11,055 nt of DNA from Candidatus Micrarchaeota archaeon (GCA_037440825.1 JBBITJ010000022.1:1-11055); one strand, 5' to 3'. Shown: positions 4,048-7,807, counted from the stretch's first letter. The notes: generated by a model not told the origin, from the letters alone. Program-made: numbers and translations.

Positions 4048-4326
4048 ATGAATTGCACGCTCGCCCTGATATTCGGCACGTATGCGATTATAGGCGGCTT
4101 CATAACATTCCCCATGGCAGGCATCCAGCCCCAGTTCCTGCGCATGCTCTGCGCCATGGTAGCGGCGTATTATGCATCCTGGTTCCTCGAACTGCTGCCT
4201 TCCAACCAGAAGCCGGAGGCACAAGCCAAGCAAGGGAAAATGGGAAGGAAGCCCGCGCCTGAAATCTTATCTAGAGTTTGTAGAGCCTCATCATCAGCGA
4301 GTTGCCTACTACGCTCACCGAGCTGA
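4048..4326 (+). CDS. Probable small two-TM membrane protein (alternative start 3970; 3' end uncertain)
   Basis: [23 protein letters not shown]...[20 protein letters not shown] has two hydrophobic segments and genome-like codons (ATA, TTC, GGC). The ORF overlaps the copA 3' end by 56 bp, so the end is doubtful. Confidence 0.45.
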
Positions 4327-6553
4327 ACGCCATCGCCGCCCCTGCGAGCACAGGATTTATCTCTATCCCGAAGCCGGCTAGCGCGCCCATCGCCACCGGA
4401 ATCCCGACCACGTTGTATATGAACGCCCAGAAAAGGTTCTGCCTTATCTTGTTCATCGTGTATTTTCCGAGCCGCACTGCCCTCGCCACGTCCCTGACGT
4501 CGCCCTTCACCAGCACCACGTCCCCGGTCTCTATCGCGACGTCCGTGCCGCTGCCTATCGCGATTCCGACATCAGCAGCCGCAAGCGCAGGCGCATCGTT
4601 TATGCCATCGCCTACGAACACGACCTTGCCTTTCTTCATGAGCTCTCGGACCTTCTCCTCCTTCTGGTGGGGCAGCACGTTCGCGATCACATTCACTATC
4701 CCTACTTCCTCGGCAACCGCCTTCGCGCTTCTCTCGTTATCCCCTGTTATCATGTAGGCTTCTATGCCCAGGGCCTTGAGCTTCGCCACCGCCTCCTTCG
4801 AGACGTCCTTTATCCTGTCTGAAATCGCCACGATTCCTATCGCTTCATCGCCTTTCGCGACTATCACCGTGGTCCTGCCCTTCGCCTCCAGGGCAGCCAG
4901 CTTCGCGCCTCCGGCAAACCGCACACCCTCCTTCCTCATGAATTTCTCATTCCCTACGCGCACAATGTCTTTTCCGGCAATCCCCTTCACCCCGAAACCC
5001 GGAATCGCGGAGAATTTCCCTACTTCGGAAAGCTTCAGCCTCTTAGCCTTCGCGTATTCAACTATCGCCTGCGCGAGTGGGTGCTCGCTCTTCCTTTCCA
5101 GGGAGGCTGCGAGGCGCATGACGCTCGAAGCCGTGCTTTTCCCTAGCGGCACGACCTCAGACACCGCAGGCTTCCCCTCGGTTATCGTCCCGGTCTTGTC
5201 GAAAACCGCGTATTTCGTGCTCTCGAGTACCTCAAGCGCCTCGGTCTTCTTCGCGAGTATGCCGTTCTTAGCGCCTATCCATGAGCTCATGACCACTGCA
5301 GTGGGCGTGGCGAGCCCGAGCGCGCACGGGCACGCGATCACGAGCACAGTTATGAAGTAAGTGAGTGATTTCTCGAATTCCGCGCCTGCGACGAAGTGCC
5401 AGTATGCGAACGAAAGCGCGGCAAGCAGCACGACAGCAGGCACGAAGTACGCCGAAATCGCGTCAGCGAGCTTCTGTATCTGCGGCTTGGAACCCTGTGC
5501 CTCCTCCACCAATTTTATTATCTGCGCGAGCATGGTGTCGCTTCCGACCTTCTCCGCCTTCATGCGGAAGCTTCCAGTCCTGTTTATCGTCGCTCCTATG
5601 GCCTTGTCCCCCTTCCCTTTCCTCACAGGTATCGGCTCCCCTGTTATCATGGATTCGTCTACGTGGCTCTCTCCTGAAACCACGATCCCGTCCACAGGTA
5701 TCTTCTCCCCGGGCCGGATTTCCAGCACGTCGCCCGGCTTCACATCGTCTATTGGGATTTCCAGCACCCTCCTGCCCTTCACTATTCGCGCTGTCTTGGG
5801 CGCGAGCGCTATGAGCGCCTTTATCGCCTCGCTCGTCTTTCCCTTAGTTATCGCCTCGAGCAGCTTGCCCAGCAGTATGAACGTGATCAGCAGGGCCGCA
5901 GTCTCGTAATACGTGTATCCTTTCACCCCGAAAAATGTGACCGCGACGCTGTACGCGTAAGCCGCCCCCACTCCTATCGTGACCAGCGAGTCCATGTTGG
6001 GCATGAGGTTGCGTATCGCCTTGGTGCCCTTCACGAAGAAATGCGAGCCCGCGAGCATCACGACGCTGGTGAGCACGAAGTGCGCATACATGCCGTACTG
6101 CTTGAGGATAGTTGGCGGCTCTATCCCGAGCATGTCCGGAAGCGCAAGGGCAAGCACGGGAATTGAGAACAGCAGCGCGGCGAGGAACCTCCTCTTGTAA
6201 TCCGCTATCTCCTTCTCGCGCTCCTCCTTCTCCCGGTCCGTCTTCGGGATGGAAATGCCGTGCTCATGGCCCATCGCCGCGTGCTCCTCGGCGGTCATCC
6301 CCATCATCCTGGTTCCGGGTTCCGCGCTCCGCGTTTCGCCGGCTTCCTTGATCACTTCGTACCCTATGTCCGAGATCTTCTTCTCGATTCCGTCCATCCC
6401 TATCTGCCCGGGCTCGAACTGGACGTACGCCTTGCCTGTAGCGTAATTCACGCTCGCCTCAGCGACGCCCTTTGTGCGCTTGAGGGCCTTCTCTATGCTG
6501 ATGGCGCAGCTCGCGCAGTCCATCCCCTTTATAATCAGAGTCTTCTTCTCCAT
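4271..6553 (-). CDS. copA: Cu(I)/Ag(I)-exporting P1B-1 ATPase, 760 aa
   Basis: N-terminal HMA GMDCASC, TGEP actuator loop, [30 protein letters not shown] and MAFSS transmembrane Cu(I) ligands. Start taken as ATG 6553, preceded by GGGTG. Confidence 0.95.
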
Positions 6554-6610
6554 CCGGCCCACCCTGTCCGCTCCGGGTTTCCCTCTTCAGGTTTCCTGTT
6601 CAGCATTGCG

Positions 6611-6739
6611 CTATTCGCAGCATTCGCCCTTCTCTTCATGGCCGCAGCAGCAACAGCAGCACTCCTCTTCCTTCTCCTTCTTCCGCATTTCCTTCTTCCC
6701 GGTTCCCTTCTTCTTTCCGCTTCCAATCTTTTTCGCCAT
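6611..6739 (-). CDS. 42-aa Lys-rich/poly-Cys microprotein MAKKIGSGKKKGTGKKEMRKKEKEEECCCCCCGHEEKGECCE, candidate metallothionein-like or metallochaperone
   Basis: Hand translation: ATG 6739-6737 to TAG 6613-6611. AGGTGA RBS 5 nt upstream, genome-typical AAG/GAG/TGC codons, position between regulator and copA. Not listed in the ORF track. Confidence 0.8.
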   Translation of the reverse strand: MAKKIGSGKKKGTGKKEMRKKEKEEECCCCCCGHEEKGECCE

Positions 6740-6755
6740 ATCAATCACCTGCATC

Positions 6756-7181
6756 CTATTCGCACTCCGAGTGCTCCGCGCAGCTTTCGCAGCAGAAATA
6801 ATGCCTCTTACCCCCGCACTCGCGCACGTACGGATTCGCGTACACCACGCAGTCGCAATGCTCGCACTCCTTCAGCTTGTTGGCGAGCACCGCCTCCACT
6901 ATCGAGTCGGCCTTCTCGAGCATGCGCCTCAGCGCCGTCCTGCCCTTCTCGGTGAGTGCGTATACCTTCTTGTCCCTCGCGCCCGTGGAGACGACCTTCA
7001 CGTGCCCCGCGTACCTCATCTTCGCCAAGAGCGGGTATATCTGACCCGCGCTCGGCTTTTTGCCGAGCATGAACCCTATCTCGTGAATTATCTCGTAGCC
7101 GCTCCTGCTCCTCTTGCTCAGAAGTATGAGCGCCTGCATCTTCGTGAATCCTCCGAATCCGTCCTCCGCCTTCTTTGCCAT
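6756..7181 (-). CDS. PadR-family winged-HTH regulator with C-terminal TRASH-type metal-binding domain, 141 aa
   Basis: PadR motifs SGYEII, SAGQIYPLL, KKVYALTEKG. C-terminus CEHC-x20-CCESC fits TRASH C-x(19-22)-C-x3-C. Start revised to ATG 7181 (TATA 21 nt upstream). Confidence 0.88.
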   Translation of the reverse strand: MAKKAEDGFGGFTKMQALILLSKRSRSGYEIIHEIGFMLGKKPSAGQIYPLLAKMRYAGHVKVVSTGARDKKVYALTEKGRTALRRMLEKADSIVEAVLANKLKECEHCDCVVYANPYVRECGGKRHYFCCESCAEHSECE

Positions 7182-7202
7182 GCGCACTAATCTCACAAAT
7201 CC

Positions 7203-7228
7203 TATATAAACATATCTTTTTTAGATAT
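7203..7228 (-). promoter_or_regulatory. TATA box (TTTATATA, 7210-7203) plus adjacent ATATCT-N5-AGATAT palindrome (7212-7228) of the copper operon
   Basis: Read directly from the 50-nt AT-rich spacer. The TATA ends 21 nt before the regulator ATG, and the inverted repeat covers the BRE position. Confidence 0.65.
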
Positions 7229-7231
7229 ATG

Positions 7232-7807
7232 CTAGATCAGCGTCCGCTCCAGCAGCGCCACCGCTATCACCGAGGGCAGTATCTCCTGCGGCTCCAGGTT
7301 TATCCAGTATACGTTCCAGCCGTTGACCCTGGCGGTCCACTGCGCGACCTGGCGGTACGCCTTGTTTATCTGGTTCTGCGGCGTGGCCCGCCACACCAGC
7401 TTGTAGTAGTAATCCACTATCTCCGCCATCATCGCCTTTCCCAGGCCGTTTCCCTGGTGCTCCTTGGCGACCACGAATTTGTCCAGGTACGGGATTCCGG
7501 CGATCTGCTTCATCACCGCGAGCCCCTCGTAATCCGGGTAATGGAATATCCCTATTATGTCGCCGTTGCCGAAATACCCGTCCACGAGCCGCTTCCCGAA
7601 CGCCTCCTCTATTATGGCCTTCATTCTTTCCTTGTCTGCGCCCTCCGCGTCCGCCTTGATTATCCGCTTGCCGTCCGCGTGCGCCGCGCCCATCAGCCCC
7701 TCGCCGAGGCATTTCTCGAATGCGAACCCGCCCCTCAGCACCTGCTCTGCCTTGGGCACGTATATCACGCCCTTCTTAGTGGCGGCATGGATCGCATTGG
7801 CCTGCAT
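7232..7807 (-). CDS. Stand-alone GNAT acetyltransferase resembling the NAT (DUF619) domain of vertebrate-like N-acetylglutamate synthase
   Basis: IEEAFGKRL..GYF, Y.GLAV, PYLDKFVV..EHQGNGLG (acetyl-CoA loop), LVWRATPQNQINKAY and W.VYW are colinear with vertebrate/Xanthomonas-type NAGS NAT-domain motifs. No amino-acid-kinase domain. Confidence 0.78.
   Translation of the reverse strand: MQANAIHAATKKGVIYVPKAEQVLRGGFAFEKCLGEGLMGAAHADGKRIIKADAEGADKERMKAIIEEAFGKRLVDGYFGNGDIIGIFHYPDYEGLAVMKQIAGIPYLDKFVVAKEHQGNGLGKAMMAEIVDYYYKLVWRATPQNQINKAYRQVAQWTARVNGWNVYWINLEPQEILPSVIAVALLERTLI

Follow-up and report, generated by a model that had tools for sequence, protein, structure and literature searches.

A short gene that had escaped calling lies between the gene for a PadR-TRASH regulator and that for the copper exporter CopA in a Candidatus Micrarchaeota archaeon (GCA_037440825.1 JBBITJ010000022.1:1-11055), and its product is most likely a metallothionein-like peptide that binds copper, a kind of protein not previously described in archaea. 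We refer to the whole stretch of DNA that was analyzed, 11,055 nucleotides in length, as the window. Judged from its own sequence and from those of its relatives, this mini-ORF is a real gene, previously uncalled, rather than a shadow frame. The original prediction had described a 42-residue ORF with six consecutive cysteines, and translation of the minus strand over 6611-6739 confirmed it, together with the basic segment that precedes 8 Cys and 1 His in the final 16 residues and the clean AGGTGA ribosome-binding site 5 nt from the ATG. The gene and its elements are as follows.

6611 to 6739, minus strand: mini-protein gene, 42 codons plus a TAG stop (6611-6613), identified from its translation, its orthologues, codon-position bias and a second allele.
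6745-6750, minus strand: Shine-Dalgarno-like AGGTGA, 5 nt 5′ of the mini-ORF ATG.
6644-6661, minus strand: run of cysteine codons TGC TGC TGT TGC TGC TGC, unique in the genome and with an identical codon string in the related genome G004.

The start ATG occupies 6739-6737, and the peptide read from the minus strand is MAKKIGSGKKKGTGKKEMRKKEKEEECCCCCCGHEEKGECCE, followed by TAG; a further in-frame ATG at 6754 would, if used, add MQVID. The N-terminal half of the peptide is rich in Lys and Gly and the C-terminal half is acidic and rich in Cys, with a net charge of +6 over residues 1-26 and of -3 over the final 16, which hold 8 Cys and 1 His. With a mass of 4.7 kDa, the peptide is 19% Cys and has 3 hydrophobic residues in total; the genome background is 1.24% Cys (701 ORFs of at least 200 aa). 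The host genome (G000) comprises 875 kb in 45 contigs, is 95.6% complete and has 54% G+C. Six-frame translation of this genome gives 21,107 stop-to-stop segments of 20 aa or more; among them the six-Cys run is the sole run of five or more Cys, and the four runs of 4 Cys found elsewhere all lie in frames without a coding look. AlphaFold2 returned no confident fold for the peptide (mean pLDDT of 55, pTM of 0.13). The statement that the gene had been overlooked agrees with the absence of the peptide from the protein collections, and long plus-strand frames do cover the locus. These shadow frames (6260-6955 and 6474-7190, 231 and 238 aa) run antisense to the regulator gene and the mini-ORF, and they defeat small-gene filters of the "no overlap with a long ORF" type, by which true orthologues are masked.

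We found orthologues of the mini-ORF at the same operon position in two of the three other operon-bearing members of the genus, G004 and G005. The G004 orthologue (63 aa) runs from MAQKTGTGKKKGTSAK to KEEECCCCCCGHEEEKKDDGCCKGGKCDC and the G005 orthologue (50 aa) from MTKKSGTGKKKGTEKK to KYCCCCDGNDCECEYHGKKNGCCCCE, so that the lengths in G000, G004 and G005 are 42, 63 and 50 aa, and all indels preserve the frame. All three peptides carry the motif G-[ST]-G-K-K-K-G-T at the N terminus and a Cys-rich tail with 8-10 Cys, and 19 columns of the three-orthologue alignment are invariant, including M1, G6, G8, K9-K11, G12, T13 and 7 Cys. Past the first run the Cys positions vary between the species in this alignment; those of G005 are spread as CCCC..C.C..CCCC and include CCCCDGNDC. 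The respective masses are 4.7, 6.6 and 5.6 kDa, with 16-20% Cys and 0, 0 and 2 aromatic residues. In the three pairwise comparisons, nucleotide differences at first, second and third codon positions number 9/8/17, 12/13/22 and 16/13/25, the third position being the most frequent in each, and near the Cys run G000 and G004 differ by synonymous changes only (GAG/GAA, GGC/GGG, CAT/CAC, GAA/GAG). The G004 start is preceded by GGTGG. In G005 an in-frame ATG three codons 5′ of the aligned Met, which would add MRK-, overlaps the TGA stop of the regulator gene as ATGA. Since the flanking regulators are merely 57-58% identical in alignment (58-60% by genome search), the conservation of the mini-ORF reflects more than recency.

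A second allele offered a further comparison. One public sequencing run, a DNA run of a subsurface metagenome that may be the source sample, was found to contain the stretch; this DNA match was the sole one, and no RNA run containing the stretch was listed among the public runs. In the Logan contigs of this run a bubble spans exactly 6608-6734, one path being identical to the window (depth 6.5) and the other having a depth of 4.0. The second path carries 10 substitutions within 6638-6704 and no indels, which amount to four synonymous codon changes (G12, T13, R19, H34) and four residue changes (G14A, M18V, E24G, E26G), and it keeps all 8 Cys and the stop. Of the six frames, that of the mini-ORF has the fewest residue changes between the alleles (4 vs 5-7). 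The flanks in the run contigs show one difference on the copA side (6200-6637) and none on the regulator side (6705-7400). Two co-existing alleles thus respect the mini-ORF frame; because the run may be the source sample, they are not independent proof of the sequence. The packing of the variation into 67 nt (6638-6704) may reflect recombination or selection on the linker. Loss of the ORF or of its Cys frame in relatives, or variation of the TGC repeat number at the cost of the frame, had been named in the original prediction as grounds for abandoning it; the ORF and Cys frame are in fact kept in two other species and in the second allele, and no frame-breaking change was seen in species or alleles.

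The mini-ORF is the second gene of a minus-strand array with the order PadR-TRASH regulator, mini-ORF, copA. The neighboring features are the following.

6756 to 7181, minus strand: PadR-TRASH regulator gene, encoding 141 residues with a PadR winged helix and a C-terminal C-x2-C-x20-C-x3-C.
6554 to 6610, minus strand: spacer from the mini-ORF stop to the copA ATG (6553), 57 nt, in a frame common to both ORFs.
4271 to 6553, minus strand: copA, encoding a Cu(I)-exporting P1B-1 ATPase with a single N-terminal HMA domain (GMDCASC) and with CPC, YN and MxxSS.
7203 to 7228, minus strand: candidate promoter/operator, the palindrome ATATCT-N5-AGATAT (7212-7228) adjoining TTTATATA (7203-7210).
L002 ~2115-2145, L006 ~2050-2085 and L012 ~670-700: the palindrome in relatives.

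CopA matched the Pfam models E1-E2_ATPase, Hydrolase and HMA and scored 620.7 bits against TIGR01511 (cut-off, 397); its GMDCASC, CPC, YN and MxxSS motifs were read from the translation. The regulator matched Pfam PadR with E = 2.9e-12, has the TRASH spacing, and its residues C106, H108, C109, C111, C130, C131 and C134 are invariant in nine aligned sequences. A single regulator query gave no match in the search for regulator loci, and a query with a four-row alignment gave relatives. From the regulator stop (TAG, 6756-6758) to the mini-ORF ATG there are 16 nt, and the 57-nt spacer between the mini-ORF and copA is interrupted by a further in-frame stop (TGA, 6587-6589). Neither 5′ of the mini-ORF nor 5′ of copA did we see a TATA-like stretch, so a single transcript for the three genes is likely. 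The palindrome and TATA box stand ~22 nt 5′ of the regulator ATG, and the same palindrome with TTTAAATA precedes the regulator in G004, G005 and G001, i.e., in all four genus members with the regulator. Positions 7203-7228 are likely the promoter and operator of the three-gene operon, and the palindrome is probably the operator of the sensor on a leaderless transcript. The wider neighbors are genes for an acetyltransferase, a glycosyltransferase, a PRPP synthetase, an AIR-synthase-like protein and ProRS.

The link to copper that had been proposed for the mini-ORF agrees with its setting, in an operon shared with the genes for a PadR-TRASH regulator and for CopA, a pump of the Cu(I) P1B-1 type. 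Available excerpts of PMC7830388 and PMC3595675 describe the TRASH motif as carried by archaeal CopR copper sensors, and archaeal cop clusters as comprising a regulator, an optional small chaperone (TRASH-type CopM of 56-71 aa, or HMA-type CopZ) and CopA; the mini-ORF occupies the chaperone slot of this layout. At position 6533 the only contig of the metagenome run has C and the window A (plus strand), so that codon 7 of copA becomes ATG (Met) in place of ATT (Ile); G004 has Met there too. The same genome holds a second copper-type module (contig C7, ~84-1530; L042), in which a gene for a 91-aa HMA protein is followed by one for a DsbD_2 membrane protein of 387 aa that has a weak cupredoxin-like match. 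At L015, L016 and L018, in other genera, an HMA-fused membrane protein is encoded immediately 5′ of the PadR-TRASH regulator.

A point missed in the original prediction is that copA continues the reading frame of the mini-ORF in each of the three species, the two being parted by stop codons alone (TAG and TGA in G000, TGA in G004 and TAA in G005). The spacers of 57, 27 and 54 nt in G000, G004 and G005 are all multiples of three. The junction reads ...KCDC-stop-TRKEIAADG-MEKKTL... in G004 and ...CCCCE-stop-LWCRVRNETENWKPQDDE-MERKTI... in G005. Read by eye, the G000 and G005 spacers look partly related, with the second stop of G000 aligned to an apparent sense codon of G005 (E-T-stop-R-G-K-P vs E-T-E-N-W-K-P). 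The copA start of G001, GGTGATTTTGATGGAGAAAAAA, is similar over only ~20 nt to the sequence that holds the ribosome-binding site and first codons of the mini-ORF, GGTGATTGATATGGCGAAAAAG. Because the species are related, the shared frame is partly inherited, and its occurrence in three of three species is weak as statistics. On these sequences, the mini-ORF probably derives from the 5′ end of copA, by detachment of an N-terminal extension or by in-frame duplication.

We next turn to distribution. A CopA match was present in six of the eight genus genomes, and the PadR-TRASH operon with a 71-73% identical CopA in G000, G001, G004 and G005, three of which carry the mini-ORF. In G001 the regulator stop is followed by 26 nt and then by copA, and the existence of this operon without the mini-ORF indicates that the latter is dispensable. 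CopA of G002 and G007 is 48-49% identical and belongs to a different operon, which has no mini-ORF; this operon (L055 in G002, L056 in G007) leads from a membrane protein through a 165-189-aa cupredoxin-like protein with a Cys-Gly end to CopA, and in L055 a short PadR-like ORF without TRASH follows CopA. Five further genomes of the family have a regulator of this type directly adjoining copA. Across 176 genomes of the order, a profile search yielded three true members (G000, G004, G005); weak matches in six further genomes (E of 0.008-0.09) were rejected as frames with stops, frames within longer frames or frames without a coding look.

We also surveyed the 2.3 kb 5′ of 100 further TIGR01511 matches of the order, 97 of which were long enough (220,843 nt). 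These represent the upper, mostly full-length part of the TIGR01511 table, from which loci already seen, a few at contig starts and most of the lower, largely partial matches were omitted. All six frames were filtered for a run of at least 4 Cys or at least 6 Cys per 20 aa, and the three controls were recovered, with 8, 8 and 7 Cys in total and with runs of 6, 6 and 4. The original prediction had recommended a pattern search for Cys runs near copA; in this order-level survey a comparable Lys/Glu-rich poly-Cys ORF was found in none of the 97 other copA upstream regions. Some surveyed loci, in other genera, encode larger cop-linked proteins with low-complexity Gly-Cys tails or linkers. In coordinates that place copA on the plus strand, at L071 (G085; 166-1764), 5′ of copA, a 532-aa HMA-bearing frame has the tail ...CGGSCGGTCGGGCSGTCGG, and at L083 (G129; 1024-1791), also 5′ of copA, GGGCGMGSGGGCGGGCG forms a linker in a cupredoxin-like secreted protein.

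Searches with the single protein and with a three-sequence profile against a set of 5.8 billion proteins, at near and longer lengths, found no relatives, and the peptide had no match in a representative set of 1.84 billion proteins. At E <= 10 the three peptides matched no family of Pfam or NCBIfam, and there were no matches among PDB sequences; the ESM Atlas gave no usable match. The claim that the peptide fits no HMA, TRASH, metallothionein or other family was thereby sustained, with Pfam, NCBIfam and PDB all negative. Because all three orthologues are missing from both huge protein libraries, they have been skipped by gene callers. The known family is small, comprising three species of one DPANN genus. 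Profile scans of a genome contig collection (188 pattern matches) and of a metagenome contig collection (at least 596 pattern matches) each gave one confirmed match, in both cases a transporter tail. The DUF7128 (PF23447) Cys-rich mini-protein was also considered, with no Pfam match at E <= 10. A SCIFF/RiPP precursor was rejected, there being no NCBIfam match and no radical SAM maturase nearby, as was a secreted or membrane protein, each peptide having merely 2-3 hydrophobic residues.

Several known systems resemble the mini-protein in part. MymT, according to a portion of PMC7558416 that refers to Gold et al. 2008, is a Cys-rich 4.9-kDa ORF that had likewise escaped annotation; it is required for Cu resistance, and a capacity of up to 6 Cu(I) is predicted for it. 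The two share the character of an unannotated ~5-kDa Cys-rich ORF tied to copper, with a Cu(I)-thiolate core predicted for MymT in that same portion; however, they have no sequence relation, the Cys of MymT are dispersed whereas six are adjacent here, and the mini-protein differs in its Lys/Gly arm, its location in a pump operon and its archaeal host. CopM and CopT (TRASH) and CopZ (HMA) are, in excerpts of PMC3595675 and PMC7830388, likewise small proteins encoded between or beside a TRASH regulator and CopA and co-transcribed with copA. Unlike them, the mini-protein has no TRASH spacing, HMA fold or model match, its Cys region covers 16-25 residues, and no fold is predicted for it. The Cys-bearing part in G000, at 16 residues, is too short for the TRASH pattern C-x2-C-x19-22-C-x3-C, and the HMA signature (GMxCxxC, PF00403) is absent from the mini-protein; the same model matches the CopA N terminus and the separate 91-aa protein.

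In the N-terminal domain of E. coli ZntA, the sequence CCCDGAC is needed for Pb binding, as stated in an excerpt of PMC10800456. The likeness lies in a Cys run just 5′ of the HMA domain of a pump, in the CCCCDGNDC of G005 and in the frame common with copA in all three species, whereas the mini-ORF is separate, with one or two stops and its own ribosome-binding site, and the adjoining pump is of the Cu(I) type. SmtB-SmtA pairs (excerpts of PMC7558416 and PMC8790569) similarly place a metal sensor side by side with a Cys-rich buffer, presumably under sensor control; the sensor here is PadR-TRASH and not ArsR/SmtB, the SmtA zinc-finger fold is lacking, and a pump lies within the operon. The two confirmed transporter tails belong to Cation_efflux proteins, one at L024 2428-3063 (Bacteroidales-labelled, 211-aa ORF) and one at L035 506-1261 (metagenome contig, 251-aa ORF), with the C-terminal tails KGKECCCCGHDNC and KGKECCCCHCSNE (fuller ends, ...EKAKGKECCCCGHDNC and ...EKAKGKECCCCHCSNE). 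Both have a near-identical K-E-C-C-C-C-(G)-H tract (KGKECCCC(GH/HC)) tied to a metal exporter, fused in this case to the C terminus of a transporter of another class, with a run of 4 Cys vs 6. Its presence on two Cation_efflux proteins means that the tract recurs as a transporter-linked module, and the likeness, being short, is probably convergent. A possible analogue, likened to the mini-protein by description only, is PF0738.1n of Pyrococcus, which an excerpt of PMC7830388 presents as a small hypothetical gene beside copR that is induced 290-fold by copper.

Taken together, these data incline us, by a modest balance of judgment, to the reading that the mini-ORF is translated as part of a copper operon of three genes, that its product, expressed together with CopA, buffers Cu(I) or hands it on in the manner of a metallothionein, and that the gene probably derives from the 5′ end of copA. 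We infer translation, metal binding, the identity of the metal as copper, the stoichiometry, the buffering or hand-off role and the evolutionary origin from these comparisons, and they would fit together in the following way. One promoter 5′ of the sensor gene would drive the sensor, the mini-protein and CopA, such that the Cu(I) that releases the sensor would also induce the peptide. Having no hydrophobic core, the peptide is probably disordered when metal-free; its acidic tail, which has 8-10 Cys and 1 His, would bind several Cu(I) as a thiolate cluster that might span two peptides, and would keep copper safe while the co-expressed pump removes it. The peptide might also deliver Cu(I) to CopA, at the HMA domain or the entry site, or to the TRASH site of the sensor. 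The conserved Lys/Gly arm would be a second functional part, to which we assign no partner.

A working definition of metallothioneins by a mass below ~10 kDa, high Cys content and few or no aromatic residues describes all three peptides (4.7, 6.6 and 5.6 kDa; 16-20% Cys vs 1.24% in the proteome). Metallothioneins fold upon metal binding (excerpt of PMC7558416), and folding only with metal fits the fold-less AlphaFold2 model. A complex prediction for CopA and the peptide gave a score of 0.00 (mark, 0.32). Several observations count against a buffer. The best-conserved part is the Lys/Gly arm, which metal buffering does not explain. Six adjacent Cys cannot all bind one ion, the adjacent-Cys pattern is unlike that of known metallothioneins, and the later Cys positions differ between species. 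The gene was found in 3 of 176 genomes of the order and in 0 of 97 other copA upstream regions, and the separate 91-aa HMA protein in the genome could be the usual chaperone. The absence of the mini-ORF from G001 and the fold-less AlphaFold2 model also weigh on this side. Of the earlier proposal of a new Cu(I)-thiolate binder whose basic arm docks on CopA, membrane or nucleic acid, what stands is that the gene is real, conserved, part of a copper operon and outside any known family; metal binding and docking we continue to infer.

The shared reading frame admits another interpretation, that the product is a detached N-terminal metal-binding domain of CopA, which would act in trans as a sensor or antenna or, by read-through, would yield a minor CopA with a poly-Cys N terminus. 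There is a precedent in E. coli copA, from which single gene both pump and chaperone are reportedly produced, as Meydan and Drees are each said to have found in 2017. The frame common to mini-ORF and copA in three of three species, the second stop of G000 at a position where G005 apparently has a sense codon, and the likeness of the mini-ORF ribosome-binding site and start to the copA start of G001 all agree with such a descent, and the order of Cys-rich motif, HMA domain and pump mirrors the ZntA N-terminal domain (excerpt of PMC10800456). The frame sharing is statistically weak given the kinship of the species, however, and the start-region likeness spans ~20 nt only. The continuous frame with the pump that marks an extension of a P1B ATPase is interrupted by 2, 1 and 1 stops in G000, G004 and G005, and the use of three different stop codons, with two stops in G000, argues against programmed read-through. 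A fused form was found neither in the search at longer lengths, where none of 1,759 candidates reached E <= 1, nor at the 97 copA loci. We regard a detached domain as unlikely.

It is less likely still that the mini-ORF is a regulatory uORF or leader, in which ribosomes would slow on the Cys codons when copper drains cysteine or thiol pools and so tune copA translation, the peptide itself being irrelevant. Amino-acid attenuator leader peptides contain runs of codons for one amino acid before the regulated gene, and six same-residue codons 5′ of a regulated gene, in a short ORF on the same transcript as copA, recall them. The alternative RNA structures that would link such an ORF to the downstream gene were not apparent, since the predicted RNA fold of positions 6530-6700, between the Cys run and the start of copA, has -35.5 kcal/mol and is matched or exceeded in stability by 147 of 200 shuffled sequences (z = +0.65). 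Moreover, neither the best conservation at the peptide N terminus nor the spread-out Cys of G005 is required of a leader, and copA of G001 has its own ribosome-binding site without any leader. We give similarly little weight to a thiol-rich peptide with a non-copper role, whether for Zn, Cd, Pb, Hg, Ag or an iron-sulfur cluster or as a sacrificial redox buffer. The look-alike tails do belong to Cation_efflux (CDF) proteins, a family made up mostly of divalent-cation exporters; P1B-1 pumps also export Ag(I); and Cys-run motifs of ZntA bind Zn, Cd and Pb (excerpt of PMC10800456). The adjoining pump, however, is of the Cu(I) subtype by score and by its CPC/YN/MxxSS signature, and the TRASH type, to which the regulator belongs, is known from archaeal copper sensors. 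Least probable of all, to the point that we consider it largely refuted, is a nonfunctional trinucleotide-repeat stretch that is open by chance. The mini-ORF is indeed very short and of low complexity, one congener has the operon without it, and none of the databases contains it, but the frame, start context, N-terminal motif and Cys are kept across species with 57-58% identical regulators, frame and Cys are kept across the two alleles, and third codon positions change most.

We therefore return to the metallothionein-like copper-binding peptide as the preferred reading. The family is new; its theme, that of a metal pump accompanied by a Cys-rich peptide for metal binding, is known. In the portion available, a 2013 review (PMC3600143) gives metallothioneins as absent from archaea, and the phrase "archaeal metallothionein" did not occur in the literature searched, where a search for consecutive- or poly-cysteine copper peptides gave nothing similar to the mini-protein. 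Tentatively, and with considerable doubt, one may go further and see in the peptide the first protein of metallothionein type from archaea and, after HMA (CopZ) and TRASH (CopM), a third class of copper carrier in cop clusters, one that would be disordered, born from the 5′ end of copA and in frame with it, with a lysine arm directed to the pump, the membrane or operator DNA.

The distribution of the gene is narrow and its hosts are uncultivated. With 42 residues the peptide is easily synthesized and would make a minimal, tractable model of adjacent-Cys Cu(I) clusters. Genes of this sort are missed by gene callers, for none of the 3 orthologues is present in protein libraries with billions of entries. 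Sharing a frame with copA, the gene offers a possible case of interconversion between the metal-binding extension of a pump and a free carrier, and a conserved, operon-embedded poly-Cys peptide would fill the metallothionein gap in archaea.
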